DNA of 64,000 nucleotides. Origin: Patescibacteria group bacterium. Its GTDB lineage: Bacteria > Patescibacteriota > Patescibacteriia > 2-01-FULL-39-33. Position numbers and translations under genes: made by a program. Below are positions 8,046 to 46,157 of this stretch, piece by piece. The DNA is taken from contig JBAZMW010000002.1 of the NCBI GenBank assembly GCA_041649575.1, positions 148,487 through 212,486 of the forward strand. Direction: 5' to 3'. The notes beneath the pieces are model-generated. The model ran no database searches and was not told where the DNA came from. It saw only the letters and a program-made list of their open reading frames with translations. How positions within the stretch are numbered: position 1 is the stretch's first letter; every line of letters starts with the position of its first letter.

Positions 8046-8173
8046 TACAGAAGGAGTCAGGTTAATAATAAAAAAAGAAGACAAAGATCGGGCAGAAGAG
8101 GTTTTAGAAATTGGTAATAAGTAAATTATTAATAATAAACAAAGATTTAACGTTTGACATAATTTTGAAAGCA

Positions 8174-8205
8174 TAATAAGATAATATATCTTTCTCCAGA
8201 GAGAA
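8174..8205 (+). promoter_or_regulatory. Sigma-70-like promoter (TTGACA..N17..TAAGATAAT) for high-GC cassette A
   Basis: TTGACA at 8174 and a TAAGATAAT -10 region. The same TAAGATAAT motif recurs at 9196-9231. Confidence 0.4.
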
Positions 8206-8284
8206 TGATTCATAGTCCACTTGTGGTGGAAGATGATTGCACAAAAGACAAGGGAACAGGAACCCAAGAAGGAGGCTGTACGTC

Positions 8285-9106
8285 ATGATTAAAAGAACCG
8301 TCGTGGGGCGACTTTTCCGTGATTCTGGCGCATTCGGCCAGTTGACGCCGCCGCCCGGTCTGGAGGGAACCATTGGTGATCCCGATTGGGATTTCTTCTC
8401 GAAGCTGCCGCCGCGTTTTGATTTTCTGGAACTCTGCGATCGGGTCGGCCACGCTTTTGAGATGTCCGAGTCACCCATCTCGCCCTCCGACTGGGAGGAC
8501 CAGTTCGAAAGTCAGAAGGAGCGGCTGCTCGCTCTGTCCGGCTGCTCTGATGGCCATGGCATCGTGCTTTTGCCCGGCCTATTGCCAGTGGCTCCCGGTG
8601 ATTGTATCAGGAAGAGCCTTTTCAATGTCTACATCCCGGCGGTAGAACGCGGCTACGGGGCGATCTATCCCAAGAGGGCTTTTGAGGATTGGTGTGATGG
8701 TCGGGCGGACAGTGTCGCGGCTTTTCCCGGAGTGGGCCACGAGCATCTAATCCACCTCGCCAGTAAAGGCTTGGTCGCCGTCTTCGTCTACATCGCCCAT
8801 TGTATGCGGGCGTGGCCCGTCTCGACCCAGCGCCGACTGCCACGGAAGTTGTTCAAATCGAATTTCTCCTTGGCCGGCGGCTGTGACACGCTTTCCGTCC
8901 TGTCTCTGCACCCTGATATTCTCGCCGCTGGTTTCTGTAGCCCGACGATCGAGCTCAGTGCCTTGCAGACAGATTCGCCGCGCCTCTCGATCTGCGTGGT
9001 GCCAGAAGACAAACGCCTCAGACTCGACATCTGGGGTAATCCCGACGATTTCGCGCCTGAAGCTTCAGGAGGGCTTTCGTTCTGGAAGGAGCAACCTGTC
9101 TTCTAG
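8285..9106 (+). CDS. Hypothetical protein, high-GC, no recognised domain
   Basis: AAGGAGG sits 10 nt upstream of ATG 8285. GC is far above the flanks. The 273-aa product has no motif I recognise. Confidence 0.5.
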   Translation: MIKRTVVGRLFRDSGAFGQLTPPPGLEGTIGDPDWDFFSKLPPRFDFLELCDRVGHAFEMSESPISPSDWEDQFESQKERLLALSGCSDGHGIVLLPGLLPVAPGDCIRKSLFNVYIPAVERGYGAIYPKRAFEDWCDGRADSVAAFPGVGHEHLIHLASKGLVAVFVYIAHCMRAWPVSTQRRLPRKLFKSNFSLAGGCDTLSVLSLHPDILAAGFCSPTIELSALQTDSPRLSICVVPEDKRLRLDIWGNPDDFAPEASGGLSFWKEQPVF

Positions 9107-9277
9107 CTGGCGCGCCTTAGCCGGCTGCCGGAGTTCTCTAATTGGGGCTAGTGATCATACCAATCACCGGCCTCTGTTTTTTGTTTTAAGCGTAGTTGAC
9201 ATTGATAATGAAAACCCTTAAGATAATCTTTCGATCTTTCAAGTTAAACTAGTAAGGCAACCATGGAGGGAGCTGCC

Positions 9278-10015
9278 ATGTTTCTGGTATTATTTTCCAT
9301 TCTGGTCTACCCAGTGGCCTTTGTCACCTTCGTCGTTTGCGCCTCAATCTACCTGGCGTTTGTCTTTGTCTTCAAGTCGCTGGGCTGGGAGCTGCAGTAC
9401 CTGGGGCCGTTGGTTCGGTTTCTGGCTCGCGTGATTCTCTTGAGTTGTGGCCAATGGCTCAAGGTTGGGGGCAACTGGCCCTCTCCGACTATCGGGCCTT
9501 GCATCTTTCTCTTCAACCACAGCTCTATCCTGGATGCTCTGGTGGCTGGCGCGGTGCTAAAAGGACGGTTCACTGGCGTGGCTGCCCAGGAGTATTTCTT
9601 TTGGCCGCTGTGGGGAACCATTATGCGCTGGCACAATATCATTCCCATCAAGCGCAAGTGCCACGACGAGGCCATAGAGAGCATGCGGCGGGCGGAAGAG
9701 GCGATAAAAAACGGCTGGTCAATAGGCGGCTTTCCCGAGGGCACCAGAAGCAAGACAGGAGAGTTGCAGCCGTTCAAAAAGGGCCTTTTCTATGTGGCCA
9801 AGGCCACGGGCGCGCCGATCGTGGTGATAGCCATCAAGGGGGCGTACCGTGCCAAGAGTCGCGTCGGTTGGTGTGTTCGGCCGGGAGTGATAACGGCCAC
9901 TATCGGCAAACCCTGGACCCTGTGGTCTAACGGAAAGCAACGGTATGCGGCCTTGTCGGTGGAAGAGTTAAGGCAACTGGCCGAAGGGCTCATGGCAACC
10001 ATGCTCGAAAGTTGA
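9278..10015 (+). CDS. 1-acyl-sn-glycerol-3-phosphate acyltransferase-like (PlsC/LPLAT family), high-GC
   Basis: NHSSILD (HX4D) and FPEGTRS acyltransferase motifs. Has its own TTGACA..TAAGATAAT promoter at 9196-9231 and a GGAGGG SD before ATG 9278. Confidence 0.7.
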   Translation: MFLVLFSILVYPVAFVTFVVCASIYLAFVFVFKSLGWELQYLGPLVRFLARVILLSCGQWLKVGGNWPSPTIGPCIFLFNHSSILDALVAGAVLKGRFTGVAAQEYFFWPLWGTIMRWHNIIPIKRKCHDEAIESMRRAEEAIKNGWSIGGFPEGTRSKTGELQPFKKGLFYVAKATGAPIVVIAIKGAYRAKSRVGWCVRPGVITATIGKPWTLWSNGKQRYAALSVEELRQLAEGLMATMLES

Positions 10016-10046
10016 GCGTCAGGCGGTTCCCGCTAGCGTAAGTATC

Positions 10047-10078
10047 CGGCAACAGCGATGTTTGCCGGTTTTTCTTTA
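10047..10078 (+). terminator. Intrinsic terminator closing high-GC cassette A
   Basis: ccggcaacagcgatgtttgccgg hairpin followed by TTTTTCTTT. Confidence 0.6.
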
Positions 10079-10123
10079 CTTGATAAAATCTCCTAATTTG
10101 TTATAATTCAGTCAAACATTTTT

Positions 10124-11941
10124 ATGACCGCCAAAGAACTCAAACAAAAATATTTAGAATTTTTTGAGCGCCACGGCCACCAGATTATTCCTGGCGCCTC
10201 ACTGATTCCGGAGAACGACCCGACGGTTTTATTTACCACGGCCGGCATGCATCCGCTCGTGCCTTATCTGCTTGGCGAAAAGCATCCCGCCGGCACACGC
10301 CTGGCCGATGTCCAAAAATGCATCAGGACCGGCGACATCGACAGCGTGGGCGACGACTGGCATCTGACTTTTTTTGAAATGCTGGGCAATTGGTCGCTGG
10401 GCGACCCCAAGGATCCCAAAGGGATCGGGGCAGGTTATTTCAAAAAAGAAGCCATTGAGATGAGTTTTGAATTTTTAACCAAAGAGTTAAATATACCTTT
10501 GGAAAAATTGGCGGTTTCTTGCTTCGCCGGCGATGATGATGCGCCAAAAGACGAAGAATCGGCGAGTGCTTGGCGTTCGCTGGGGATCAGTGACAAACGG
10601 ATTGCTTTTTTGAGTAAGGAAGATAATTGGTGGCCGGCCGGTGGCAAAATGCCCGGTCCTCAAGGCCCGGACACGGAGATGTTTTATTGGAACTCGGATG
10701 AGTCGGCGCCGGAAGATTTCGACCCACAGGACAAGCGCTGGGTGGAAATCTGGAATGATGTTTTTATGCAATATAACAAGGCCGCCGACGGCAGCTACCA
10801 GCCGCTGGTGCAACAAAATGTCGATACCGGCATGGGATTGGAGCGTACCGTTGCTATCTTAAACGGCAAAAAAAGCGTCTACGAAATCGAGCCGCTCTTA
10901 ACCGTTTGTTCGCAAGTAACGGCTTTATTCGAGAGCACCCTGGAAGAACTGGAAGCCGAACAAACCAAAGCCGTCAGAATCATTGCCGATCATTTGCGCG
11001 CCGCCGTCTTTATTTTGGCCGAGAGCGTGGCGCCCTCCAACGTTGAACGTGGCTATGTCCTGCGCCGGCTGATTCGGCGCGCTATTCGCTATGGCAAGCA
11101 ACTGGGCATCAAAGACGCTTTCACTGCCAAAGTGGCCGAAGTGGTCATCGCGCAAATGGGCGGATTTTATAAGGAACTAAGAGAACAGCGAGATTTCATT
11201 ATCGATGAATTAAACAACGAAGAAGAAAAGTTTAGCGCTACTTTAGAAAACGGCTTAAAAAAGTTTGAAAAATTAAAAATTGACGAGCAAAAAAAGATCA
11301 GCGGCCAAGATGCTTTTATTCTTTTTTCCACTTATGGTTTCCCTTTGGAGATTACCAAAGACTTGGCCACCGAGCGCGGTTGGCAAGTTGACGAAGAAAA
11401 TTTTAATCTAGAATTTGCCAAGCATCAGGACATTTCCCGAAAAGGCGCCGAGCAAAAATTCAAGGGCGGTTTGGCCGATAATAGCGAAGTGACGGCCAAG
11501 ATGCATACCGCCACGCATTTGATGTTGGCGGCTTTGCGCCGGGTGTTGGGCGATCACGTTTACCAAAAAGGTGCCAACATCACCAGCGAGCGCATTCGCT
11601 TTGATTTTTCCCATGGCGAAAAAATGACAGCAGAACAAATCAAGCAAGTGGAAGACTTGGTCAATGAACAAATTAATAAAAAGATTCCCGTGGTCTGCGA
11701 AGAAATGACGCTAGAAGAAGCCAAGGAGAGGGGAGCGATGGGAGTTTTTAAAAATAAATACGGCGAGCGGGTTAAGGTTTATACCGTCGGCGATCCCTCG
11801 GCAGGATCGGGACAGGTTTTTTCCAAAGAGATTTGCGGCGGTCCGCATGCCGCCAACACCGGTGATCTGGGCCACTTCAAAATCCAAAAAGAAGAATCCA
11901 GCTCCGCCGGAGTCAGAAGAATTAAGGCGGTTCTGGAGTGA
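10124..11941 (+). CDS. alaS: Alanine--tRNA ligase, short form lacking the C-terminal C-Ala/DHHA1 region
   Basis: N-terminus LEFFERHGHQIIPGASLIPENDPTVLFTTAGM is AlaS class II. Editing-site HTATHLMLAALR and CGGPH are present. Only 605 aa versus ~870 typical. Confidence 0.85.
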   Translation: MTAKELKQKYLEFFERHGHQIIPGASLIPENDPTVLFTTAGMHPLVPYLLGEKHPAGTRLADVQKCIRTGDIDSVGDDWHLTFFEMLGNWSLGDPKDPKGIGAGYFKKEAIEMSFEFLTKELNIPLEKLAVSCFAGDDDAPKDEESASAWRSLGISDKRIAFLSKEDNWWPAGGKMPGPQGPDTEMFYWNSDESAPEDFDPQDKRWVEIWNDVFMQYNKAADGSYQPLVQQNVDTGMGLERTVAILNGKKSVYEIEPLLTVCSQVTALFESTLEELEAEQTKAVRIIADHLRAAVFILAESVAPSNVERGYVLRRLIRRAIRYGKQLGIKDAFTAKVAEVVIAQMGGFYKELREQRDFIIDELNNEEEKFSATLENGLKKFEKLKIDEQKKISGQDAFILFSTYGFPLEITKDLATERGWQVDEENFNLEFAKHQDISRKGAEQKFKGGLADNSEVTAKMHTATHLMLAALRRVLGDHVYQKGANITSERIRFDFSHGEKMTAEQIKQVEDLVNEQINKKIPVVCEEMTLEEAKERGAMGVFKNKYGERVKVYTVGDPSAGSGQVFSKEICGGPHAANTGDLGHFKIQKEESSSAGVRRIKAVLE

Positions 11942-12009: not shown

Positions 12010-12235
12010 TTTCATTTCTGCGAGCGCATGAAAATTTAGCAACAAAACAGGCGGAGTTCGAGCGTAAATTTTAATTTGTTTGAGCAAAAGCCACCAGTAA
12101 ACTGGTGGCTTTTGCGAGTTATTAAAATTAGCGAGAACAACCCTGTTTTGTCTAAATTTTCATTTAGCTCGCGCTTTTTTCTTTTGTGTCAGCTTTTCTT
12201 TTTACTAAAAAAAGAAAAGCTGACACAAAAAAAGA
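12010..12235. repeat. MITE-like repeat family, copy 1, with TIRs and a terminal perfect hairpin
   Basis: gcgagcgcatgaaaattt (12020) and its inverse aaattttcatttagctcgcgc (12154), plus the hairpin gtgtcagcttttcttttt-actaaaa-aaagaaaagctgacac. Related copies at 22158-22430 and 24650-24842. Confidence 0.6.
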
Positions 12236-12252: not shown

Positions 12253-12283
12253 TTGACAGAATTCTAATTATATGCTATTATAA
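12253..12283 (+). promoter_or_regulatory. Consensus-like promoter for high-GC cassette B
   Basis: TTGACA-17 nt-TATTAT, then a ~70-nt UTR and GAAGGAG before ATG 12358. Confidence 0.45.
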
Positions 12284-12357
12284 TAAGAAGTACCTTTTAC
12301 CACTGTGAGCTGGCCGACTTAGTCGGAAAACTAAGAACGAAGAAGGAGAAACACATC

Positions 12358-12714
12358 ATGAGTCAAAAGACTGGCATACTATTGCTGCTGTTGCGGCCGA
12401 AAGACGGAGCGGCCGTCTTCTTGGACTGGACCCAGAACGCCCTCTTCATGCTGGAGAGCGCGAGTGCCACAGGCGTTTCGCCGTTGGCCGAGAGGGAAGA
12501 TCTGGCCAAGTGTATGAAGGGTTACGAGCTGTGTCCCGCGCTTGGCTACGGCCTATGCGCCAGGTGCCCTATGTCAGTCACCGGCGGTGCTCTCTGTAAT
12601 TTCTGGGCTTCCCAGGGATTCGCCCGCGTGCTCGACGCGCGCACAGAAGAGGAGGCGACCTTTGCCGATCTCGATGCCATGCGCGCCGCGCTCACCGCTT
12701 CCATTACCGGCTGA
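12358..12714 (+). CDS. Hypothetical Cys-containing small protein, high-GC
   Basis: Strong SD GAAGGAG. 118 aa with LCPALGYGLCARCP. GC is far above the flanks. Confidence 0.5.
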   Translation: MSQKTGILLLLLRPKDGAAVFLDWTQNALFMLESASATGVSPLAEREDLAKCMKGYELCPALGYGLCARCPMSVTGGALCNFWASQGFARVLDARTEEEATFADLDAMRAALTASITG

Positions 12715-12729
12715 AAGGAGAACACGGAC

Positions 12730-13107
12730 ATGCCAACGGTACAAGTGGCCGCGATAAATCTGCCGGCTGGCGCCTTCCTTTTCTTCTATCCGGAACACGC
12801 CACCCCCCAGTACCTTCTGTACAAGAATATCTGGCTGGGACAGACGATGTTCAGGCAGAAGCTAAACGAAGACGAACTTCAGGCTCTCCTCGCCGCCGGT
12901 CGAAATGGGTGGGAGGAAGTGGGCGAGGTGACTCGACGAGAGTTGCAGGCCGCGGATCTCTCTGGACTGGTTCGCAATCTCAAGACCAGGTGCGTCTGGC
13001 CCGAGAATGCGACCGCGTCAATCGCTGTCAGTCCTGACTGCAGCGGACGATGCTCGGAGTGTCGCGGGTGCTATAGCGACATGGAGCCAGTCACAGTAGA
13101 GCGATAG
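12730..13107 (+). CDS. Hypothetical Cys-rich small protein, high-GC
   Basis: SD AAAGGAG and a 15-nt gap from the upstream ORF, so probably an operon. C-terminal CSGRCSECRGC cluster. Confidence 0.5.
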   Translation: MPTVQVAAINLPAGAFLFFYPEHATPQYLLYKNIWLGQTMFRQKLNEDELQALLAAGRNGWEEVGEVTRRELQAADLSGLVRNLKTRCVWPENATASIAVSPDCSGRCSECRGCYSDMEPVTVER

Positions 13108-13125
13108 TCACACTGTGGTTCGTAT

Positions 13126-13172
13126 CCGGGGGTTGTTGGTCGAGAAAGACCGGCAACCCTCTTTTTTTTTAT
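13126..13172 (+). terminator. Intrinsic terminator closing cassette B
   Basis: 12-bp GC-rich stem (gggttgttggtc / gaccggcaaccc) followed by T9. Confidence 0.65.
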
Positions 13173-32950: not shown

Positions 32951-33042
32951 ATGTTTCCTCGCTCCTCAATGTTTTCCACCATAGTCCTAGCAAGCCACCG
33001 TTGCTAAGGTACTAATTATATTATACCCCATAAACCCAAAAC

Positions 33043-34968: not shown

Positions 34969-34971
34969 AAT

Positions 34972-35006
34972 AAAAACTACGTCCCGATAACCGGGACGGA
35001 GTTTTT
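34972..35006. terminator. Bidirectional intrinsic terminator
   Basis: aaaaac-gtcccg-ataacc-cgggac-ggagttttt, with A-run and T-run on either side. Confidence 0.6.
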
Positions 35007-35029
35007 CAGAGAATAAAATCGTCTTTTGT

Positions 35030-35158: not shown

Positions 35159-35197
35159 AAAATTTGGTTAATTATTTAATAATATCTAATTTCTAGT

Positions 35198-36451: not shown

Positions 36452-36500
36452 GGAAAGAAGATTATTTTAATCTTATTCTACAAGAATTATATAACAATTC

Positions 36501-36529
36501 TTGACAAAAATCAATCTCAAAGCTATTAT
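36501..36529 (+). promoter_or_regulatory. Consensus promoter (TTGACA-N17-TATTAT) for high-GC cassette E
   Basis: ttgacaaaaatcaatctcaaagctattatt. Confidence 0.45.
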
Positions 36530-36584
36530 TTTTATTAAGTTGTCCTTTGGCTTTTGGTGAAGTTTCAACAACGGAGGGAGAAAC

Positions 36585-36848
36585 ATGGGACTCGTCGCTC
36601 CTGACACTCGCGGCAACGCGTGCTGGCTGATTAAATGCAACAACTGCGGCCATCAGGCGGCTTGGGATGGCTCCAATGCCGAGCAAACCCTTAGCCTGGC
36701 CGAGAATGATGGTTGGACGGTAACTCGAGGCAAGGGCCCAGGTGAGGTGGTCGCTCTGTGCCCCGAATGCAGGAAGAAACAACAGAAAGTCACTCCAGCC
36801 GCCATTGTCAGCCTGATGGATTTCCGCCAAGCATTGCCCAGGCGGTGA
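36585..36848 (+). CDS. Small zinc-ribbon protein (87 aa), high-GC
   Basis: GGAGGGAG SD. Product CNNCGH...CPEC. Terminator aaggcttg..caagcctt plus T-run at 36878-36925. The antisense ORF 36462..36890 is rejected. Confidence 0.5.
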   Translation: MGLVAPDTRGNACWLIKCNNCGHQAAWDGSNAEQTLSLAENDGWTVTRGKGPGEVVALCPECRKKQQKVTPAAIVSLMDFRQALPRR

Positions 36849-36909
36849 GCCGCGGGAGGTTTCCGAGATTCCCAACGTCAAAGGTTTCAAGGCTTGGACC
36901 GAGCGCGGT

Positions 36910-38418: not shown

Positions 38419-38421
38419 AAA

Positions 38422-39291
38422 TTATTTTTTCTTTACCACCAGCCACCCAAATTTAATGGTGGCATTATAAATCCTACTTAACCGGCGCGGTTCTTGGATT
38501 AGCCGATATAGCCATTCTAACCCCAATCGCCTCAAAAATAAAGGCGCGCGTCTCACCTGTCCCGACAAAAAATCAAAAGTCCCGCCGACGCCAATCGCCA
38601 CTTTAATTTTTGGCACTTTGGCTAAGTTGTCTCTGATCCACTTCTCCTGCCTCACTTGCGGCAAGGCCACCAACAGAATATTGGCTTCGCTGGCATTAAT
38701 TTTTTCCAGCACCTGATTGTTGTTTTCAAATTGCCAACATTTGTTTTCTATGGGATCCCCACGGCCGGCTTCGCCGGCCTCGGGATGACATTGTAGAAGC
38801 GGCCCGCCTTGGTCAAAGCCAGCCACTTTGCCAATATATTTTTCTGCCACTTGTTTTGCCGCTCCTTCTTTTCCGCCCAGTAAATAAATTTTATAAATGT
38901 CATTGCGAGGGAGCGCGAGCGACCGTCCGCCTAGGCTCGGCGAGACTGGTGGCAATCCCGTGGGATCACCGCGTTGCCCGGTCATTTGACCGGGCTCCTC
39001 GGGATGACAACTTAGAAGTGCCTCTATTAGATCCACGCCCGTCACTCTCTCTAATTTTTCTTGTTTTAAAAATTTAGCCGCCCAAACCAGCCCAGCGCCA
39101 TCGCAGGTGGCCAAATCAGCATTATTTAAAATATTTCTGAAAACTTCGTCTTTTTGCGCCGCCACCACAAATTCCGGATTAATCGTCACCACCTGCCTTT
39201 GGCCTTCCGCTGTCAGCCATTTTTTAATTAACTTCAAGGCTTCTGGCAAATTGACCTGATCGATTTTTATTCCCAGTATTTCTATTTTCAT
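38422..39291 (-). CDS. WecB/TagA/CpsF-family glycosyltransferase carrying two in-frame GC-rich insertions
   Basis: N-terminus KIDQVNLPEAL..VTINPEFVVAAQKD and C-terminus LEWLYRLIQEPRRL match WecB/TagA. Central region is interrupted by ..LLQCHPEAGEAGRGDP.. and ..LSCHPEEPGQMTGQRGDPTGLPPVSPSLGGRS.. Confidence 0.7.
   Translation of the reverse strand: MKIEILGIKIDQVNLPEALKLIKKWLTAEGQRQVVTINPEFVVAAQKDEVFRNILNNADLATCDGAGLVWAAKFLKQEKLERVTGVDLIEALLSCHPEEPGQMTGQRGDPTGLPPVSPSLGGRSLALPRNDIYKIYLLGGKEGAAKQVAEKYIGKVAGFDQGGPLLQCHPEAGEAGRGDPIENKCWQFENNNQVLEKINASEANILLVALPQVRQEKWIRDNLAKVPKIKVAIGVGGTFDFLSGQVRRAPLFLRRLGLEWLYRLIQEPRRLSRIYNATIKFGWLVVKKK
38752..38815. repeat. GC-rich palindromic in-frame insertion, module Y copy
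   Basis: gggatccccacggccggcttcgccggcctcgggatgacattgtagaagcggcc. Shares ctcgggatgaca..tagaag with 38990-39022. Confidence 0.5.
38898..39022. repeat. GC-rich in-frame insertion (module X, shared with pheT, plus module Y)
   Basis: tgtcattgcgagggagcg..ccgcctaggctcggcgagactggtggcaa is the reverse complement of pheT 25981-26037. Followed by the cccggtcatttgaccggg hairpin and gggatgacaacttagaag. Confidence 0.55.
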
Positions 39292-39294
39292 AAG

Positions 39295-39984
39295 CTACTT
39301 TTTTAGATAATTCACGATGATTTTGGCCTGGCTCTGGTTTTCTTTGTCGTCCTTAAAAGACATCAGGCCAAAAATGTCGCCTTTCCAAAAGCCCAAATTA
39401 ATTTCATAATCTGCCAGATTTTCCTTAAACTCAAAGCCGCTTTCCTTCAGCTTGTTTTTGTAGTAGCCGGCCACCTCTTCTTTCGGCTGGCTTATCTGTT
39501 TCCAGGACAAAGAGGTTGTTTCCATTTTTTTCAGTTCCGGCGAGCTTAGGGCTTTTTTTAATTCCTCCGGCGTAAAACCGCGCGACAAGTCTATTTTATC
39601 GGCAAAACTTTGGCTTAATTTAGCTTTCAAATCATTGGATAAATAAGCCAAAGTCGGCTTAAGCAGCCAGTTTGGTAAAAGGCCCATGATTTTCAAAAGT
39701 TTTTCCTTGCCTTCTGGCGTCTGCAGTTCAATCTCGGCTTTTTCCGGCAGATAAATGGCCAGTTCTTCCGGGAAATCACCCGGCAACTGGTTGACTTTTT
39801 CCACCACCGGAGAGACCGCCAATCTGACAGCGGCAAAAAGAGTAATGAAGATAATTACCAACGCCAAAATTAAACAACCGAAAAATTTGATAAATTCTCG
39901 GCTTCTATTTTTTTCCGGATTGTTCAGGTTGAGTTCCTGCCAATTTTTCATTATTTCCTGGCTAATTTTATTATATTCTAGCAA
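39295..39984 (-). CDS. Hypothetical membrane-anchored protein
   Basis: Single TM helix (FGCLILALVIIFITLFAAV). Lys/Glu-rich extracytoplasmic part. Confidence 0.4.
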   Translation of the reverse strand: MLEYNKISQEIMKNWQELNLNNPEKNRSREFIKFFGCLILALVIIFITLFAAVRLAVSPVVEKVNQLPGDFPEELAIYLPEKAEIELQTPEGKEKLLKIMGLLPNWLLKPTLAYLSNDLKAKLSQSFADKIDLSRGFTPEELKKALSSPELKKMETTSLSWKQISQPKEEVAGYYKNKLKESGFEFKENLADYEINLGFWKGDIFGLMSFKDDKENQSQAKIIVNYLKK

Positions 39985-40289
39985 ATACCAGCCTTTTTTG
40001 CAAAAGTAAATCAGTCTTGTTATAATAAAAGTGGTTCATTTCCTCGAGACCCGAACTGGTCATTTGGGTCTCACCGCTCCGGTGGGGAAGCGAAACCAGC
40101 GCCTTCGCTTCCCCTCTGGCTTAACCAAAGCACCTTGGTAGCACTTCCCGGGTCTACTGAAAGCCGCATCCAGGCAAGCATTAGACCCGTTCCCGCTGTG
40201 GCGGCCGATGGCATCAGTCATCAGCCGTCCTTTTTGTTTATCCACAGTTAAATATTTATAACCAAAGAAATCTTTGCTATAATAAAATC

Positions 40290-40626
40290 ACATTGGACAT
40301 GGGGCTTGTCAAATGGCCCTGCAACCAGTCCGAACGGAGAACGAGCCATGAGAACAAAGACAACGAAGCGAGCAGCAGTGGGCGTGATGGTCGATGGCAC
40401 CGGCGGAACAGCGTACTTGGCGACGTCCTGACCTAACGAGAACGGTCGGACTGGGCGTCAAAGAAGTTCTCCGAGACGCTTGACTCAACCCAAGCGTCTC
40501 GCCGCACCTTAACTCTCCTCGGAGAGTTGTGACTATAGGTTTTCACGCTTTGACAAAGCGTGGACATCCCCCTAAGGTGAGCAGTCGGTTGCTGACAGGT
40601 AGCCGACTCTCTTTTTGTTTTTAAAA
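40290..40626 (+). ncRNA. Candidate ~330-nt GC-rich structured RNA with embedded 27-codon ORF and intrinsic terminator
   Basis: TATAAT at 40276. Perfect hairpins gagacgcttg..caagcgtctc, cacgcttt..aaagcgtg and ctctcc..ggagag. Long-range pair ccagtccga/tcggactgg. Terminator agtcggttgctgacaggtagccgact plus T-run. GGAGAA SD before ATG 40347 (MRTKTTKRAAVGVMVDGTGGTAYLATS). Confidence 0.35.
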
Positions 40627-40755
40627 AATTTAGTTATCCACAGGTACTATTTATTTCTTTAAAAAATAGTTATATAATGAAAGTGCGGAAGGTATTTACG
40701 ATAGCGTACAACCGAAGCAGGCCATCGGCCAAACGATCGGCCAAACGAAAGAAAG

Positions 40756-41259
40756 GTGGGACGGAAGATGAGAAAGTTCGTGTTTTGTACGGTAGTACTG
40801 GCGTTCGCGTTTGTGATGATTCCGGCGACGAATACTCCGGCATACGCGACGCAACTCGATCAAGGCAAGGCAGTGGCGACGGCTCCGACGACGATGGGGA
40901 CGACGCAGCAGGACGTGCAGACGGCGATGAAGAGCAACCTGGTCCTCGACGGCACCGGGCAGAAAGTCGCTGAAGTGATGAAGGCGCCGACTCTTGACTC
41001 CGGACGAGTGATTGCGCAGACGGCGACGACGAAGACGGCACGCGAAGAGCAGACGAAGATCACGGCGAAGAGTGACACGGTTGTAACGGCGAAGATCGAA
41101 GCGCAAGGCATGGGCGAGCAGATGGCAGCGGCTGGCGAAGATGACGCTGGCACGATCATCGTGGCGACGAAGAGTGACACCTATGCGACGAGAATCGAGG
41201 GCCGTATCGCTCACGACGCGGACGCGACCTTCAATGCGAACGTTCTGATCATCGGCTAA
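40756..41259 (+). CDS. Secreted low-complexity Thr/Ala-rich protein, high-GC
   Basis: AAAGGTGGGACGGAAG SD region. Signal peptide MRKFVFCTVVLAFAFVMIPATNTPAYA. The rest is T/A/K-rich with no domain. Confidence 0.5.
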   Translation: MGRKMRKFVFCTVVLAFAFVMIPATNTPAYATQLDQGKAVATAPTTMGTTQQDVQTAMKSNLVLDGTGQKVAEVMKAPTLDSGRVIAQTATTKTAREEQTKITAKSDTVVTAKIEAQGMGEQMAAAGEDDAGTIIVATKSDTYATRIEGRIAHDADATFNANVLIIG

Positions 41260-41431
41260 CCACGCGGGCAGCGCCGAAAGTCAGAACGAGTAGTACCTTG
41301 GATACACAACCGATACCGGCCAACAGTCGGATCGGCCACCTCCAGAGTTGGGTCAGCTGGCAACGGCGACCCTCTCTTTTTTTGTTTTGAAAAAATTTGC
41401 CAAAATTTTATAAATTTTTTATACTATAAGC

Positions 41432-41756
41432 AAGCGGTTCCTGCTGTGGGAACCGTGCACATTGGGTCAACGGGTCAACCGGAGGGTACAAGCAATATGA
41501 AAAAGGAAATGAGAGCGCAGGGTTTGGTCGTGGCGAAATGGAAGTAGGCTAGACCGTAGCAAGGCAACTTAGCGTTGTTGGGCGGAGGCCCCAACTAACA
41601 GTGGGCCTCCGCTGAATCTTTCCCTCGCTTGAGCGGGGTGCTGGTATATCCTTCTCTGAAGGGGTTCCCCCGTTGGGAAGTGTTGCCCATTCAACGCCTC
41701 CTGACCGCACAGGCTGCAATTTGTCGCAAGACGAAGGGCAGCCTGAATTATTTTTT
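41432..41756 (+). ncRNA. Candidate ~320-nt GC-rich structured RNA with 16-codon ORF, upstream of the radical SAM gene
   Basis: 11-bp hairpin ggcggaggccc..gggcctccgcc. GGAGGG SD before ATG 41497 (MKKEMRAQGLVVAKWK). Ends with stem caggctgc..gcagcctg plus T-run immediately before the radical-SAM promoter. Confidence 0.3.
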
Positions 41757-41781
41757 GCTATACTTAATTTATACTGAATTT

Positions 41782-42657
41782 ATGAGAGCAGCCAAATTTT
41801 ACAAAAAATCAGGGGCTAATGTTAAATGTCAGCTTTGTCGGCATTTTTGTCTGATTGCCCCAGCCAAGTTCGGCCTCTGCGGCATGAGGAAGAATATCGA
41901 CGGCCGGCTTTATTCTCTTAATTACGGTAAAATCATTGCCAGCCAGATTGACCCGATCGAAAAAAAACCGCTCTATCATTTTTTGCCAGGCAGTTTTGCT
42001 TATTCTTTGGCTTGCCCCGGCTGTAATTTTAAATGCCTTAATTGCCAAAATTCCGATCTTTCCCAAATCACCCCGGCTTTACAAAAGGCCGTTGATTCTT
42101 TGCCGGAAACCAGGCCGGAAGAGATTGTCGAGGCGGCCTGGGAAAACAATTGCCCGTCAATCGCTTATACCTATACCGAGCCCACCATTTTTGCCGAGTT
42201 TGCTCTCGACTGCATGGAGCTGGCCAGAGACAGTAATCTAAAAAATATCTGGGTTTCCAATGGCTATCTGTCGCCCGGTTGTCTGGAGGCCATCAGCCCC
42301 TATCTTGACGCCATTAATATTGATTTGAAATTTTTTAGCGATAAAAATTATCAAAAAATTTGCGGCGCTCGCCTAAAACCAGTCTTGGATAATCTGGTTG
42401 CTTTTAAAACAGCCAAAATTCATTTGGAAATCACCACTTTAATCATTCCCTCACTTAATGATAGCGATGAAGAGTTAACCGCTCTGGCAGAGTTTATTTA
42501 TCAAAAATTGGGCGACGACACGCCCTGGCATCTGGGCGCCTTTCACCCCGCTTACAAATTAAAAAATTTACCGGCTACGCCGACAGAAACCATCAAGCGG
42601 GCCCAGGCAATCGGGAAAAATATCGGCCTGAAATATGTTTATCCGGGAAATGTTTGA
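41782..42657 (+). CDS. AmmeMemoRadiSam-system radical SAM enzyme (PflA-like)
   Basis: AKFYKK...KCQLCRHFC...GLCGMRKN.DGRLYSLNYGK...DPIEKKPLYHFLPGS...CPGCNFKCLNCQN matches the family signature. Start moved downstream from the ORF-track start to MRAAKF. Confidence 0.7.
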   Translation: MRAAKFYKKSGANVKCQLCRHFCLIAPAKFGLCGMRKNIDGRLYSLNYGKIIASQIDPIEKKPLYHFLPGSFAYSLACPGCNFKCLNCQNSDLSQITPALQKAVDSLPETRPEEIVEAAWENNCPSIAYTYTEPTIFAEFALDCMELARDSNLKNIWVSNGYLSPGCLEAISPYLDAINIDLKFFSDKNYQKICGARLKPVLDNLVAFKTAKIHLEITTLIIPSLNDSDEELTALAEFIYQKLGDDTPWHLGAFHPAYKLKNLPATPTETIKRAQAIGKNIGLKYVYPGNV

Positions 42658-42753
42658 CTCTAATTTAAACCGGATTGTTTTTTTGGCTGTCTTAACGCCT
42701 GAATTTTTGTTATAATGATTTATGGTGCATGAAAGATTAGTAAACAAAATTAA

Positions 42754-44109
42754 ATGAGAAAAAACTACCAATTAGCGGTATTATTTTGTTTTTTGCTTTT
42801 TTTGCTTTTACCCTTTACGGTTGGGGCGGCCGATTTCGATCCCGATTATCTGATTTCTGATACCGAATTGGCCAATCACAATTCTTTGGACCTGTCTGAT
42901 ATTCAAAGATTTTTGGACAAAAGAAATGGCACGCTCAAGGGTTATGTCACCCTTGATAAAGAAGGCAACCTAAAAACCGCCGTCCAGGCTTTTTTCGAGG
43001 TGGCGCAGAAGTGGCTGATCAACCCCAAATATTTGTTGGTGTTGGTACAAAAAGAGCAAAGCTTACTCGAAGATACCAATCCCTCCCAGGGCCAATATGA
43101 CCGCGCTACCGGTTATGGTTGTCCCGATACCGGCGGTTGCGACGACCGCTGGAAGGGCTTCTATCGCCAGGTAAATTCCGCCGCGGCTCAAACCCGCTAT
43201 TATCTGGACAATATTAATGAGTTTACTTATCAGCCGGGAAAGGCCTATAATATTGACGGGCAGTCTGTCACTCCCAAAAACACCGCCACCGCCGGTTTGT
43301 ACAATTATACCCCCCATCTTCACGGCAATCAGAATTTCTGGAACCTTTGGAACCAGTATTTTGGCAAAAAATGGCCTAATGGCGCCCTGTTGCAAGCCGA
43401 AGGCGACGCTAGCAAGGTTTATTTGATTGAAAACGAAGAAAAACGCGAAATTATATCCAAAGCGGTTTTTGCCTCCCGCTTCGACAGTAAAAAAATAATC
43501 ACTGTCGGCCAGGAAGATCTGGATTCTTATGACTCTGGCGTGCCCATAAAATACCTCAATTTTTCCCTGCTTAAAAGCAGCCGCGGCGACATTTACATGA
43601 TCGTTGACGACCAAAAAAGAAAAATTGCCAGTCAGGAAGTTTTCAAAAAAATCGGTTTTATGGAAGATGAGGTGATTCCGGCGGATGACAGCGAGCTGGG
43701 CCTTTATAAAGACGGTCCCGAGATTACCAGCTATACCCTTTATCCCGCCGGGACGCTTTTGCAAGACAGCCAGACTAAACAAATTTTTTATGTCATCAGC
43801 GGCAAGAAGCGGCCAATAATCAATAAAGAAATCCTGGCTTTTAATTTTAACGGCTTGCCGGTCAAAAAAGTTTCTCCCGTCGAACTGGAATCGTACCGCT
43901 CTGGCAATCCCGTCACCTTGCCCGATGGTGAACTGGTCAAAATCAAGGGAGCCAATACGGTTTACGTGATTTCCAATGGCAAACGTCTGCCGATTTTCAA
44001 CGCCAAGATTTTCGAAAAAATGAATTATAAATGGACTAACGTCAAAACCGTTTCCAAAGAGACCCTGGAAGTTCATGAGCTGGGTCAAACCATCACCGGC
44101 GATTGGTAA
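42754..44109 (+). CDS. Secreted protein with four ~55-aa internal repeats
   Basis: Signal peptide MRKNYQLAVLFCFLLFLLLPFTVGAA. Four repeats of the type KVYLIENEEKREIISKAVF / DIYMIVDDQKRKIASQEVF / KQIFYVISGKKRPIINKEIL / NTVYVISNGKRLPIFNAKIF. Confidence 0.5.
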   Translation: MRKNYQLAVLFCFLLFLLLPFTVGAADFDPDYLISDTELANHNSLDLSDIQRFLDKRNGTLKGYVTLDKEGNLKTAVQAFFEVAQKWLINPKYLLVLVQKEQSLLEDTNPSQGQYDRATGYGCPDTGGCDDRWKGFYRQVNSAAAQTRYYLDNINEFTYQPGKAYNIDGQSVTPKNTATAGLYNYTPHLHGNQNFWNLWNQYFGKKWPNGALLQAEGDASKVYLIENEEKREIISKAVFASRFDSKKIITVGQEDLDSYDSGVPIKYLNFSLLKSSRGDIYMIVDDQKRKIASQEVFKKIGFMEDEVIPADDSELGLYKDGPEITSYTLYPAGTLLQDSQTKQIFYVISGKKRPIINKEILAFNFNGLPVKKVSPVELESYRSGNPVTLPDGELVKIKGANTVYVISNGKRLPIFNAKIFEKMNYKWTNVKTVSKETLEVHELGQTITGDW

Positions 44110-44138
44110 AGATTGCTATCTAAATTAATCAAAAACAT

Positions 44139-44930
44139 ATGTCTCTAGTTTTCGCGGCCATTGTGCCGCATCCGCCAATTCTCATACCCACCATTGGCAA
44201 AGAAAATTTGGAAAAGATACAAAAAACCCAAAAAGCCATGGAGCGTTTGGAGCAAGACCTTTATGCTTCCAAACCAGACATTCTAATCATAATTTCCCCT
44301 CATGGCGAAGTTCAGCATGATTTTTTTACCATCAACTTGTCTAATCAGTACCAAATTAGTTTTAACGACTTCGGCGATTTTGCCACCAAATTAGAAACCG
44401 GTGGCGACACTATCCTTATCTCGGTCAATAAAGAAAAAATCAACAGCCGCTCCCCTATCAATATTATTTCCGAGCCTAACTTGGACCACGGAATTGGCGT
44501 CCCTTTTTATTATTTGGGCCAACACCTCAAGGAAACCAAGCTGATCCCGATTTATTTTTCTTTGCTGGATAATTTGGCTCATTTGGAATTCGGCAAAAAT
44601 CTGAAAGAGGCCATTATGGGCACCGAAAAAAGAGTGGCCGTGGTGGCTTCCGGCGATTTGTCGCACTGCCTGACCGAAAACGCGCCAGCGCCTTTTAGTC
44701 CGGCTGGCAAAGAATTTGATGAAAAATTAATCGCTTTGCTCAAAAATGGCGATACCCAGGGGGTGATTAATCTGGAACCAAAATTCATCGAAAGCGCCGC
44801 CGAATGCGGCCTGCGTTCGATTTTAATTCTTTTGGGAGTTTTGAATAACATTAGCTTTCAATCGGAAATCTTGAGTTATGAGGCGCCTTTCGGCGTCGGC
44901 TACCTGGTGGCGAATTTCAAATTGGAATAA
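44139..44930 (+). CDS. MEMO1-family protein (AmmeMemoRadiSam system protein B-like; LigB superfamily)
   Basis: AIVPHPP, NLDHGIGVP, SGDLSHC, AECG and SYEAPFGVGYLVANF line up with MEMO1 family motifs APHAGY, DEHS[IL]E, SDFCH, ICG and SY..AG. Confidence 0.55.
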   Translation: MSLVFAAIVPHPPILIPTIGKENLEKIQKTQKAMERLEQDLYASKPDILIIISPHGEVQHDFFTINLSNQYQISFNDFGDFATKLETGGDTILISVNKEKINSRSPINIISEPNLDHGIGVPFYYLGQHLKETKLIPIYFSLLDNLAHLEFGKNLKEAIMGTEKRVAVVASGDLSHCLTENAPAPFSPAGKEFDEKLIALLKNGDTQGVINLEPKFIESAAECGLRSILILLGVLNNISFQSEILSYEAPFGVGYLVANFKLE

Positions 44931-44943
44931 AGATTAATTTTTT

Positions 44944-44975
44944 AAAACCGCCCTCGTTGGCGGTTTTTTTATTTG
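44944..44975. terminator. Bidirectional intrinsic terminator
   Basis: aaaaccgcc-ctcgtt-ggcggttttttt. Confidence 0.6.
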
Positions 44976-45283
44976 TCTGCCAGTACTTTAAAAAAATATT
45001 TCCACCTCTCTTTTTGCGCCAGTTCCTTGGTCTCGTTTAAGGCTCTCTCTATTATAATCTGGTTATTTTCTTTGCAAACCTTAAAAACAGAATTCCGCTT
45101 AAAAGCCGGCACGCCCAGCTCCTTGATTATTTTTAGAGCCAGTTCTTGCCATTGGTAAGCGGGCGGCTTTTTTGACTGCCGATTGGTAAAAATATCACTT
45201 AATGATTGAAGTCCTTTATTGTCTTTCATACCTAAGGAATTGTAATGGGATTTCTTTAAAAAGTTAAGAGGTGCGAAAATCAA
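44969..45283 (-). CDS. Hypothetical protein (104 aa)
   Basis: ORF only, no recognised domain. Its 3' end overlaps the terminator. Confidence 0.3.
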   Translation of the reverse strand: MIFAPLNFLKKSHYNSLGMKDNKGLQSLSDIFTNRQSKKPPAYQWQELALKIIKELGVPAFKRNSVFKVCKENNQIIIERALNETKELAQKERWKYFFKVLADK

Positions 45284-45368
45284 GTAATATTTTGCACCTC
45301 GTTTTTATTTAAAAAAATTGACAAAACTTAGTATAAATTAATATAATATAAAAAACTTAAATAAATTC

Positions 45369-45827
45369 ATGCTTCAAATACTAACCAATCCCAATCCAAT
45401 TTTGCGCCAAAAATCAGTCTTGGTCGCCGATTTTACTAATGAAGAAGTCCAGAAACTGGTGCCGGAAATGGCCGAGACTATGCTCAAAAAAGACGGGCTC
45501 GGTCTGGCCGCGCCACAAATTGGTAAAAATATCAGATTGATAGTAGTGAGCCATAAGGATGGTGTTTTGGCTCTGTTTAACCCAAAAATTATTAAAAAAT
45601 CTTGGTTTAAAGAATGGGGCGAAGAGGGTTGTTTGTCTCTGCCGGATAAATACGGCGAAGTCAAACGTCATAAGAATATAACTGTAAAATTCGATGATAC
45701 CACAGGCAAATCAGAATGTTTGGAAGCCAAGGGTTTATTGGCCAGAGTAATTCAGCATGAAATCGACCACTTGGACGGAGTTTTGTTTATTGATAAAGCT
45801 AGAAAAATCGTAAATATCGACAAATAA
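45369..45827 (+). CDS. def: Peptide deformylase
   Basis: GLGLAAPQIG, EGCLSLP and HEIDHLDG metal-binding motifs. Confidence 0.9.
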   Translation: MLQILTNPNPILRQKSVLVADFTNEEVQKLVPEMAETMLKKDGLGLAAPQIGKNIRLIVVSHKDGVLALFNPKIIKKSWFKEWGEEGCLSLPDKYGEVKRHKNITVKFDDTTGKSECLEAKGLLARVIQHEIDHLDGVLFIDKARKIVNIDK

Positions 45828-45892
45828 AACACGAAGAACGGGCACCGGTTGGCACCCGTTCGGTTCCACAGAACAAACTCACGTCGCCTTGA

Positions 45893-46093
45893 TCACGCTG
45901 GCTCCAGCAGTCTGAAGCATATCATCATGCCGATGAAGCAACAGGCCGCCACAACCATTAAGCGCTCGATTCTCCTTTCCCAACCATGCCTCATGTTTTC
46001 ATAGACGAGTGGGATCGCAAAGCCGGAGAATAAGCCAATTAGGCCAAGAACCACCATGACCACTAGCAATGCACCGTGATATGCGGTAAACAT
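45893..46093 (-). CDS. Small two-TM membrane protein (66 aa), high-GC
   Basis: GGAGGG SD 8 nt before ATG at 46093 (the ORF track's TTG start is rejected). Hairpin plus T-run terminator on the minus strand at 45830-45892. Inserted between def and fmt. Confidence 0.45.
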   Translation of the reverse strand: MFTAYHGALLVVMVVLGLIGLFSGFAIPLVYENMRHGWERRIERLMVVAACCFIGMMICFRLLEPA

Positions 46094-46157
46094 GTCCAAG
46101 ACCCTCCTGTGTCTGTTGAAATTGTGCTTGTCAAAAACATACCATTAAAATTTACAA

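Follow-up and report, generated by a model that had tools for sequence, protein, structure and literature searches.

GC-rich, Shine-Dalgarno-led transcription units between housekeeping genes of a Patescibacteria chromosome: probable accessory islets

How do short GC-rich genes, each with its own promoter, ribosome-binding signal and terminator, come to stand between the housekeeping genes of a bacterium that mostly starts its own genes without a Shine-Dalgarno (SD) sequence? The question is raised by a stretch of 64,000 nucleotides, here called the window, from a Patescibacteria group bacterium (GenBank assembly GCA_041649575.1, contig JBAZMW010000002.1, positions 148,487 to 212,486 of the forward strand). 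A first-pass annotation had listed seven such cassettes. The window holds about eleven moron-like units in 38 kb, each 0.3-1.9 kb long (Table 1), and it is their density and form that are unusual, not the kind of system. Morons are independent transcription units of deviant GC content (Juhala/Hendrix; reviewed by Cumby et al., 2012, PMC3594210). On the evidence below, it seems fairly probable that the units are small accessory islets, added singly to intergenic spacers by horizontal transfer, each as an insulated transcription unit. The seven cassettes are largely borne out, but the sixth consists of four units (6.0 to 6.3), and units 3, 6.0, 6.1 and 6.3 are mainly structured RNA. The predicted proteins are named c1a, c1b, c2a, c2b and c3 to c7.

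The backbone is a chromosome of the Patescibacteria, or Candidate Phyla Radiation (CPR), with locus tags WC518_…. The window has a GC content of 43.7%; outside the seven listed cassettes it is 42.6%, rather than the approximately 40% first estimated. Composition is not uniform on computation: GC content, codon preference and the GC-normalised dinucleotide signature all deviate. When unit GC was expressed as z-scores against length-matched backbone windows (Table 1), five cassettes with 52.6-56.0% GC bore out the impression of foreign composition; the GC of four of them is reached by no backbone window of equal length, and that of the fifth, 36501-36925, by 0.09% of such windows. As wholes, units 3 and 7 are only mildly elevated, their GC being reached by 6-8% of backbone windows. 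The GC-rich stretches run approximately from start codon to terminator (8298-10068, 12384-13161, 32399-32912 and 36572-36949).

The reading frames share this character. GC ranges from 0.57 to 0.61 and GC at third codon positions (GC3) from 0.67 to 0.72 in the four open reading frames (ORFs) of units 1 and 2 and in c4, and GC3 lies between 0.61 and 0.74 in eight of the nine cassette ORFs; c3 shows no elevation. Native genes have a GC of 0.40-0.49 and a GC3 of about 0.43-0.57. Except in the 62-codon ORF of unit 3, the order in cassette ORFs is GC3 > GC1 > GC2, which argues that the proposed frames are coding. Codon choice differs in ways beyond what GC accounts for: the backbone prefers GCC, ACC, AAA, GAA and TTG, and the cassettes GCG, ACG, AAG, GAG and CTG. 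After normalisation for GC, the pooled cassettes lie at a dinucleotide distance of 218×10^-3 from the backbone, against 36±13 (maximum 93) for random backbone samples of equal size. Distances among c1a, c2 and c4 are 87-116, as opposed to 200-300 to the backbone. The signature of c6, with a CpG ratio of 1.58, is distinct from the other cassettes and the backbone alike, and the units therefore probably have more than one source. Strict GC-outlier genes make up 5 of 63 genes here (7.9%) and 17 of 1,316 (1.3%) in 83 other low-SD loci totalling 1.44 Mb (odds ratio 6.6, p = 0.002), where the SD survey rests on a crude choice of start codons.

A second contrast lies in translation initiation. An SD 5-mer, scored at -20 to -4 before the start, is present at all nine cassette ORFs (as AAGGAGG, GGAGGGAG, AAGGAG and similar forms) and at 5 of 54 native genes (Fisher p = 8.5e-8), so the SD split seen at first sight holds. 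Native genes that come first in an operon start typically 10-20 nt past the TATAAT box, as alaS does at 10124, and are thus near-leaderless. In this genome most initiation appears to be near-leaderless, or AT-rich and independent of an SD, and to be coupled with very strong consensus promoters. The cassette promoters, by their sequence, are of the ordinary type of this genome. TTGACA-N17/18-TATAAT-like sites with 10-12 of 12 matches lie at 8154, 9196, 12253, 20711, 33049 (-), 36501, 39998, 40255, 41397 and 46164 (-), and equally good sites precede native genes at 10080, 13199, 13239 and 45318. Promoter-like sites are about twice as common across the region as in shuffled sequence, and over 29 nt the 20711 promoter shares 93% identity with a native promoter at 54216. 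The best terminator matches also close units (13128-13161, 32433-32399 (-), 36889-36918, 45861-45836 (-) and 40583-40608), and the longest terminator hairpins of the region are those of units 2, 4, 5, 6.1 and 7. The weak signals are the terminator hairpin of unit 1a (about 9143-9190) and the -35 box of unit 6.2. Overall, the bracketing of each unit by promoter and terminator is as first described, with the corrections that the promoters are ordinary and that the terminator of unit 1a is weak.

Part of the GC excess appears to belong to RNA rather than to protein genes. Region 39996-41760 comprises four consecutive promoter-to-terminator units, and only one of them, unit 6.2, has a convincing ORF. 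Unit 6.0 would give a GC-rich RNA, about 200 nt in length and composed of long perfect hairpins (minimum free energy, MFE, -88.5 kcal/mol; z = -6.2), with no credible ORF and no Rfam match. Unit 6.1 folds with z = -2.6 (120-nt windows at 40394-40574, z from -2.0 to -4.9). Unit 6.3 (z = -3.4) ends with a T-run near 41750, shortly before a radical SAM gene (AmmeMemoRadiSam, TIGR04337, E = 1.3e-87). A TTG start at 41629 for this gene is spurious; the true start is 41782, and the unit 6.3 stretch is therefore non-coding for it. The unit 3 promoter is followed by a long structured leader, and the coding status of its 62-aa ORF is doubtful because the ORF region is equally structured (z = -5.5), lacks a GC3 excess and has an exact product that is not in the protein collection. 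Folding thus points to about four units being structured RNAs.

If this were true of all units, they would be cis-regulatory leaders or structured RNA genes, whose GC is high in any genome that leans towards AT, and their small ORFs would be incidental. The folding of units 3, 6.0, 6.1 and 6.3 is what such an account predicts, and the 746-bp spacer at the unit 6 site of the related contig L083 holds two short promoter-RNA-terminator units, one of them GC-rich and starting, like unit 6.1, with 'TATAATAAAATCAC'. As a general account it is nonetheless distinctly unlikely, since it holds for those four units only. The other seven carry ORFs of 66-273 codons with coding-type GC1/GC2/GC3 and a properly spaced SD. 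Coding parts other than the unit 3 ORF fold like mRNA in a sliding-window scan (z about 0), and one unit encodes a Pfam domain and another a fold modelled with high confidence. Moreover, none of the four RNA units matches Rfam 15 at the gathering score, only chance-level matches appear at E ≤ 1-10, and the RNA parts have no sequence relatives in 170 loci. Ribosomal RNA, tRNA and known non-coding RNA were ruled out as the source of the GC peaks by Rfam (at gathering and permissive E-values) and by ARAGORN, which finds one tRNA in the window, tRNA-Gln at 62619-62691. Selection on mRNA structure as the source of coding-part GC is likewise unsupported by the folding scores.

Several further observations concern these RNA units and their surroundings. 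The DnaA-box 9-mer TTATCCACA has three exact copies, at 20581-20589 (-), 40238-40246 (+) and 40634-40642 (+), where 0.38 are expected; three copies were reached in 0 of 100 shuffles. The copies at 40238 and 40634 come directly after a terminator T-run, where the next GC-rich RNA unit begins, and L083 has 'TTATCCACAG' after a terminator in the homologous place (about 8213-8205, read on the minus strand). The copy at 20581 precedes the unit 3 promoter by about 120 nt and lies in an AT-rich, 170-bp spacer between a helicase gene and unit 3 (20533-20710, 12-17% GC), which also holds a second promoter-like site at 20606-20634. The 9-mer could be a site for DnaA or another regulator, or a conserved unit boundary. 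A 65-nt palindromic element resembling a bidirectional terminator occurs twice with 91% identity, just upstream of the unit 2 promoter (12155-12233) and right after a low-GC dehydrogenase gene (24657-24721); its Rfam matches are chance-level miRNA matches only. The radical SAM gene (41782-42657) is solitary, lacking AmmeMemo or MEMO1-like partners in its vicinity. The corresponding spacers of L083 and of a second related contig, L084, do not contain it, and with its native-like GC of 0.45 it seems to be a separate, compositionally inconspicuous insertion beside unit 6.

Sharp compositional jumps in a metagenome-assembled contig (235 kb, with the MEGAHIT-style name k141_2894300) could also arise if high-GC reads of another organism had been stitched into a CPR contig during assembly or binning. 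This explanation is very improbable. It needs eleven insertions, each placed in an intergenic spacer exactly between a host-type promoter and a terminator, with the flanking genes intact. Contigs of a second assembler (Logan, SRR8542065), probably working from the same read set, match window 4950-10257 at 100% over both junctions of unit 1, and another Logan contig joins c2a and c2b to infA and so reproduces the right junction of unit 2, likewise at 100% identity. The contig record is common to NCBI, ENA (ERZ27247363, 235,073 bp) and JGI, at almost the same length in each. In addition, the same architecture occurs in the independent samples L165, L166, L167, L168, L170, L172, L173 and L003.

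Comparison with syntenic relatives is consistent with insertion. The relatives are distant, with 60-73% amino acid identity in housekeeping proteins. The nearest GTDB genomes are L001-L003 (alanyl-tRNA synthetase, AlaRS, identity 65-71%), and the nearest metagenome contigs are L083, collinear with window 25.4-49.9 kb, and L084 (glutamyl-tRNA synthetase, GluRS, identity 62-64%). The first-pass annotation had placed the units between housekeeping genes; in these relatives the genes concerned are direct or near neighbours, and the units are missing there at the sites of units 1, 5, 6 and 7 (Table 1). The comparison at unit 4 is ambiguous, and the unit 3 site is covered by no relative. At the unit 2 site, L003 carries other cargo. 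Ahead of the tandem infA promoters, which are conserved, its alaS-infA spacer has a TTGACA promoter, the SD CAAGGAGC, a 103-aa Cys-rich ORF (51% GC, the locus having 42%) and a terminator; window c2a has no homology to this unit (E = 2.5). GC-rich, SD-led genes also stand immediately upstream of alaS in L002, L049 and L063; the L063 gene, with the SD AAGGAGG, reaches 50% GC where its genome has 34%. Because the cargo differs across relatives, the mnmA-alaS and alaS-infA spacers behave as hotspots with cargo turnover. Isolated ORFs akin to units 2, 3 and 5 in kind, not in sequence, were observed in L060 (7574-7897, GC 0.55 against 0.43, with repeated CxxC zinc ribbons), L074 (7452-7688, Cys-rich, GC 0.51 against 0.37) and L063 (2550-2867, GC 0.45 against 0.34, with the SD AAAGGAGGAG and a terminator).

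Table 1. Positions in the window of the units, their reading frames and sites, with the genomic contexts of the c1a family
Feature	Position (strand)	Signals, product or setting	GC (GC3) or z	In relatives
Unit 1a	8154-9192 (+)	promoter TTGACA-N17-TAAGAT 8154-8182; leader about 95 nt, two hairpins; SD AAGGAGG; weak hairpin and T-run about 9143-9190		
c1a ORF	8285-9106 (+)	273 aa	0.58 (0.67)	
Unit 1b	9196-10078 (+)	promoter TTGACA-N17-TAAGAT 9196-9224; SD GGAGGGAG; terminator CCGGCAA...TTGCCGG and T-run about 10043-10078		
c1b ORF	9278-10015 (+), alternative start 9263	245 aa; candidate PlsC/LPLAT	0.57 (0.70)	
Unit 2	12253-13172 (+)	promoter TTGACA-N17-TATTAT 12253-12281; strong terminator 13128-13161 and T9		
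c2a ORF	12358-12714 (+)	118 aa, Cys-rich, SD-led	0.61 (0.72)	
c2b ORF	12730-13107 (+)	125 aa, Cys-rich, SD-led	0.58 (0.67)	
Unit 3	20711-21522 (+)	perfect promoter 20711-20739; hairpin and T-run 21490-21522		
Unit 3 leader/RNA	20746-21314	570 nt, highly structured	MFE z = -9.7	
c3 ORF	21315-21503 (+)	behind GAGGAGGG; possible 62 aa, CxxC...CPxC	0.54 (0.54)	
Unit 4	32399-33049 (-)	promoter TTGACA-N18-TATAAT 33049-33020; leader about 65 nt; SD GAGGAG; 15-bp terminator 32433-32399 (-)		
c4 ORF	32950-32453 (-)	165 aa	0.57 (0.68)	
Unit 5	36501-36925 (+)	promoter TTGACA-N17-TATTAT 36501-36529; SD GGAGGGAG; terminator 36889-36918		
c5 ORF	36585-36848 (+)	87 aa, CxxC...CPxC, zinc-ribbon-like	0.59 (0.64)	
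Unit 6.0	39996-40245 (+)	promoter TTGCAA-N17-TATAAT 39998-40026; terminator 40200-40239		
Unit 6.1	40255-40625 (+)	promoter 40255-40283; terminator 40583-40608 and T-run		
Unit 6.1 ORF	40348-40431	27 codons, weak SD; hairpin-rich 3' part		
Unit 6.2	40640-41390 (+)	-10 TATAAT 40672-40677, poor -35; 90-nt leader; SD AAAGGTGGGA; terminator 41350-41388		
c6 ORF	40768-41259 (+)	163 aa, signal peptide, Thr/Ala-rich	0.59 (0.74)	
Unit 6.3	41397-41760 (+)	promoter TTGCCA-N17-TATACT 41397-41425; SD GGAGGG		
Unit 6.3 ORF	41497-41547	16 codons; then about 200 nt of GC-rich hairpins		
Unit 7	45830-46164 (-)	promoter TTGACA-N17-TATGTT 46164-46136; SD AGGAGGG; terminator 45861-45836		
c7 ORF	46093-45893 (-)	66 aa, two predicted transmembrane helices	0.50 (0.61)	
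Cassette 1	8174-10078		55.3%; z 4.6	
Cassette 2	12253-13172		56.0%; z 3.8	
Cassette 3	20711-21520		48.4%; z 1.5	
Cassette 4	32400-33048		54.7%; z 3.0	
Cassette 5	36501-36925		53.4%; z 2.35	
Cassette 6	40250-41760		52.6%; z 3.3	
Cassette 7	45830-46150		49.8%; z 1.4	
Unit 1 site	8046-10123	mnmA-alaS spacer, 2,078 bp, holding 1a and 1b		L001 370 bp, no gene
Unit 4 site		664 bp		L083 477 bp, ambiguous
Unit 5 site		M23 peptidase-GluRS, 459 bp		L083 277 bp; L084 55 bp
Unit 6 and radical SAM site		2,770 bp		L083 746 bp; L084 266 bp
Unit 7 site		between def-like gene 45369-45827 and gene 46158-47096, 331 bp		L083 18 bp
c1a family		after dnaA-dnaN	0.53; flanks about 0.40	L166
c1a family		short contig	0.51; flanks 0.38	L167
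c1a family		before secG	0.58; flanks 0.45-0.50	L168/L169
c1a family		between nusA and tsaD	0.52; flanks 0.47	L170
c1a family		short contig	0.56; flanks 0.39-0.46	L172
c1a family		short contig	0.58; flanks 0.39-0.46	L173

Under the reading of singly added islets, horizontal transfer followed by illegitimate or flank-guided recombination would add one islet at a time, and the spacers next to alaS would act as hotspots whose cargo turns over between lineages. Entry could be by transformation with illegitimate recombination, by flank-guided replacement or by an unknown vehicle. Once in place, a host-type sigma-70 promoter would give a leader of 35-110 nt, the strong SD would recruit the ribosome independently of the near-leaderless mode of the host, and the GC-rich hairpin with its T-run would end transcription ahead of the next native promoter. 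We infer the direction and mechanism of transfer, the use of these signals in vivo and the functions of the products.

The family of c1a provides a view of one unit outside the window. There are 136 remote homologs, family members are 25-41% identical, and the best relative shares 41% identity with c1a. The protein has no sequence match in PDB or Pfam. Its AlphaFold2 (AF2) model is confident (pLDDT 92, pTM 0.91) and shows weak similarity to C-type-lectin and formylglycine-generating enzyme (FGE) folds; a fold search of BFVD gave no match. A role as the target of a diversity-generating retroelement gained no support: no template/variable repeat (TR/VR) was reported in the window, and reverse transcriptase was not looked for. 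Seven genomic contexts of the family were compared, on mostly CPR-like contigs. In all seven the gene is solitary and exceeds its flanks in GC, and where neighbours could be identified (four of the seven) these are mostly SD-less with 38-52% GC. Each gene has a TTGAC-type promoter and a hairpin-bearing leader of 70-150 nt, six of the seven have a recognisable SD, and a terminator hairpin follows the gene in L167, L170, L172 and L173, the four examined. The region from the -10 box to the start, 'TA(A/G)GATAATATATC', is common to the window and L167. In single-sequence folds, most leaders have a 5'-proximal hairpin and several a second, GCCAC…GUGGC-like one; RNAalifold on a MAFFT alignment gave no consensus structure. 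Since promoter, leader, SD, ORF and terminator occur together, it is the whole c1a transcription unit, beyond the ORF, that recurs at differing loci. To this extent the idea of mobile modules finds support; the cassettes as a set have no common ends, repeats or homology.

The neighbouring unit 1b is the one with a supported family assignment. By the criteria of its family it encodes a predicted PlsC/lysophospholipid acyltransferase (LPLAT): c1b matches PF01553 end to end (E = 2.7e-28, profile positions 4-132 of 132) and keeps both the HX4D (NHSSILD) and the FPEGTR (FPEGTRS) motifs. It is very divergent, with a best homolog only 49% identical and the next 35-37% among 5.8 billion proteins, and its match to TIGR00530 (E = 3.5e-24) is under the cut-off of that model. 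The first-pass annotation had paired the acyltransferase with c1a as an unknown partner. This pairing was abandoned: each has a promoter and a terminator of its own, members of the c1a family are found elsewhere with no PlsC, and in L165 PlsC directly follows mnmA with no c1a between them. The L165 PlsC is among the best homologs, at 49% identity. It has 56.7% GC, a GC3 of 0.69 and its own promoter and SD, and stands between an mnmA fragment with 46.7% GC and downstream sequence with 32% GC; MnmA identity between the window and L165 is 64%. At the same site in L002 is a 39%-identical PlsC without GC excess. Based on these syntenic homologs and on a dinucleotide signature nearer the backbone (distance 141) than the other cassettes (201), PlsC is probably an old occupant of the mnmA-alaS hotspot, beside the lipid genes for CarS-like and diacylglycerol kinase (DAGK)-like proteins, and c1a was then probably inserted between mnmA and PlsC in the lineage of the window.

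These two families are also the ground for a different account, in which the units form an old, resident and lineage-specific expression class with structured leader and SD, whose GC is actively maintained, for instance through selection acting on translation or on the stability of mRNA, or because alleles are repeatedly replaced from relatives. PlsC follows mnmA in the window, L165 and L002, and the L165 copy is GC-rich at 49% identity, a divergence at which relic composition should be erased. The lesser distance of c1b from the backbone fits the same account. Similarly, members of the c1a family are GC-richer than their flanks at 25-41% identity in all seven contexts, the nearest homologs stand between lower-GC flanks with mostly SD-less neighbours where known, leader hairpins are conserved with the gene in single-sequence folds, and no outside donor was found. 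Against this, units are missing from the same spacers in relatives, where the L003 spacer holds non-homologous cargo, and the c1a family is at a different locus in every genome. Moreover, c1a, c2 and c4 are strongly unlike the backbone in codon choice and signature, such genes are several times rarer in other low-SD loci, and coding-region folding near z = 0 speaks against RNA-structure selection as the cause of GC. A resident class is therefore an unlikely explanation of the units as a whole.

The search for an origin gave few relatives. In a word-indexed search of 5.8 billion proteins c1a and c4 matched only themselves, and the cassette proteins present in the protein collection are singletons at 90% identity. 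Apart from PlsC, there was no convincing cassette match in Pfam, NCBIfam, PHROGs or PADLOC; among the nine cassette proteins the best PHROG match had E = 0.018. Within this result, c2a, c2b and c6 have no family matches, c5 has sub-threshold zinc-ribbon matches only, and the single-sequence AF2 model of c4 is uninformative (pLDDT 43). Scans of IMG/VR with c1a, c4 and c5 gave no match, nor did tblastn of c1a, c2a, c2b, c3, c5 and c6 against PLSDB plasmids and of c1a against INPHARED phages. The cassette proteins have no homology among themselves and, except for PlsC, none to any fetched locus. The only relatives found are those of the 273-aa c1a and of PlsC, in contigs that are mostly window-like. 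Repeated acquisition from a high-GC donor, as first proposed, is thus not supported. Instead, the source pool was probably other Patescibacteria or their unsampled mobile elements, and not a classical high-GC phylum. Two specific origins were also rejected. A single mobile-element family with common ends does not fit, the repeats common to the units being promoter hexamer regions that also occur at the native sites 930 and 54216. A prophage or defence island is contradicted by the lack of convincing PHROG matches, the absence of PADLOC matches and the housekeeping neighbours.

A number of points weigh against the addition of islets by transfer. PlsC occupies the mnmA-alaS site in three lineages and is GC-rich and SD-led in two that are only 49% identical, a pattern that resembles long residence rather than a recent arrival. 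In all contexts seen, the c1a family exceeds its flanks in GC, with no composition-matched 'home' genome found, and this agrees with composition being maintained as much as with repeated import. The phage, plasmid and viral collections searched yielded no donor or vehicle, although the deep homology search left out c2a, c2b, c3, c5, c6 and c7. The unit ends show no terminal repeats, flanking direct repeats or target duplications, and scans with Pfam and NCBIfam found no integrase or transposase among the unit ORFs. Cassette promoters and leaders are AT-rich and host-like, and the promoter, SD and terminator calls are sequence predictions. Because the relatives are distant, absence there could reflect loss rather than gain here, and the two cannot be rigorously polarised. 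Even so, single addition of islets by horizontal transfer is the account that we regard as fairly probable.

With respect to known systems, the units resemble phage morons in having their own promoter and factor-independent terminator, as judged from sequence signals, in lying between genes that are adjacent in relatives (units 1, 5, 6 and 7), in a composition unlike that of the flanking genes (weakly so for units 3 and 7) and in comprising small genes, one or two per unit, whose function is accessory or unknown. In contrast to phage morons, they are on a cellular chromosome among genes for ribosomal proteins, aminoacyl-tRNA synthetases and rpoA, and not in a prophage. They also depart from the host in their mode of translation initiation, and several are RNA-only. 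Given their housekeeping neighbours and the lack of a convincing PHROG match, the units are moron-like in their working, not phage morons. Accessory genes gained by horizontal transfer collect at a few hotspots flanked by core genes (Oliveira et al., 2017, PMC5635113); the distribution of the units matches this model, and the lineage-dependent cargo of the alaS-infA and mnmA-alaS spacers is similar. However, those hotspots were defined within species pangenomes, whereas the comparison here spans genera or families at 60-73% amino acid identity, and the islets are 0.3-1.9 kb long, lack mobile-element genes and number about 11 in 38 kb. Integron cassettes are likewise compact and built around a single ORF, often an ORFan of deviant composition, with an element at the 3' end that forms a hairpin. 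Unlike the units, they are promoterless and arrayed beside an integrase and attI, with attC sites bearing conserved R/L boxes; the units are dispersed over 38 kb, with their own promoters, sequence-unrelated hairpins with T-runs and no integrase. A classical genomic island or integrative element is not indicated either, as there is no integrase or transposase, no flanking repeat, a size of only 0.3-1.9 kb and a single tRNA, at 62619-62691.

The first-pass annotation had held that such modules are not described in CPR genomes. Horizontal transfer into Patescibacteria has been described, mostly from other Patescibacteria (PMC12455944), a finding that the distribution of the units matches. That study concerns the same recipient phylum and includes lipid-related transfers, e.g., of lysophospholipases. 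The transfers there appear to have been called by phylogeny and IslandViewer, and single-gene promoter-SD-ORF-terminator units, their GC excess or an SD contrast are not described; a term search of the text for 'promoter', 'codon' and 'Shine-Dalgarno' found none of them. In a limited literature search, neither the moron-like anatomy of such units nor the split between SD and non-SD genes was found to be described.

The wider setting of the units is as follows. Neighbouring native genes encode CarS-like and DAGK-like lipid proteins, MnmA and a short, 605-aa AlaRS; IF-1, S13, S11, S4, RpoA, L17, L13 and S9; an AddA-like helicase-nuclease, seryl-tRNA synthetase (SerRS), an M23 peptidase and GluRS; and a TagA-like transferase and peptide deformylase. 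The unit 7 promoter overlaps the start of a divergent native gene. Cumulative GC skew has its maximum at about 32-36 kb, and gene orientation changes from mostly plus on the left to mostly minus right of 47 kb. Based on this peak and switch (about 32000-47000), the window probably includes the replication terminus, around which acquired genes are often abundant. Low-GC outliers were observed as well: an isopropylmalate/isocitrate-dehydrogenase-like gene (23570-24649, 36% GC), a 163-aa ORF (24854-25345, 29% GC, GC3 0.19) and a 188-aa ORF (30084-30650, 33% GC). L083 has a 107-bp spacer at the syntenic position and lacks both the last of these and its 47%-GC neighbour (30631-31110), so low-GC acquisitions seem to occur too. 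In addition, a 49-nt stretch at 25969-26017 is 94% identical, inverted, to 38919-38967. The copies lie inside opposite-strand genes, an 822-aa ORF (25390-27858) and a TagA/WecG-like gene (38422-39291), and could reflect gene conversion or a recently duplicated segment.

What these readings leave to be explained is that two or more gene families keep a GC-rich, SD-led character from lineage to lineage. One tentative extension, which we think rather less probable than not, is that Patescibacteria share a pool of compositionally autonomous moron-like units, with a conserved structured leader besides promoter, SD, GC-rich ORF and terminator, that relocate among intergenic hotspots in chromosomes where genes are otherwise near-leaderless and lack an SD, and keep their GC-rich, SD-dependent character over the long term. 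If true, this would mean that two translation-initiation regimes co-exist and separate core from accessory genes, and that there is either an unknown vehicle (a CPR plasmid, a phage or a transformation-based shuttle) or active maintenance of composition.

In conclusion, the CPR/Patescibacteria have tiny genomes and depend on hosts, and the route by which they gain functions matters. On the reading favoured here, the window shows gene-by-gene gain in an unusually clean form, with complete expression units slotted between housekeeping operons and set apart by composition and by their mode of translation initiation. The products observed range over a secreted Thr/Ala-rich protein, a two-transmembrane peptide, Cys-rich and zinc-ribbon proteins, a protein of lectin-like fold (a weak match) and a lysophospholipid acyltransferase, and their sequences suggest envelope and host-interface functions, with a supported family assignment for PlsC only. 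The structured RNA units and the 273-aa family, with its detectable members and confidently modelled fold, are new material for annotation. If the pattern is general, the combination of SD and GC would be a cheap marker of the accessory genome in SD-poor bacteria and would flag candidate host-interaction factors among secreted, membrane, Cys-rich and lipid-remodelling proteins. It would also provide a test case for the expression of foreign genes where native genes skip the SD.

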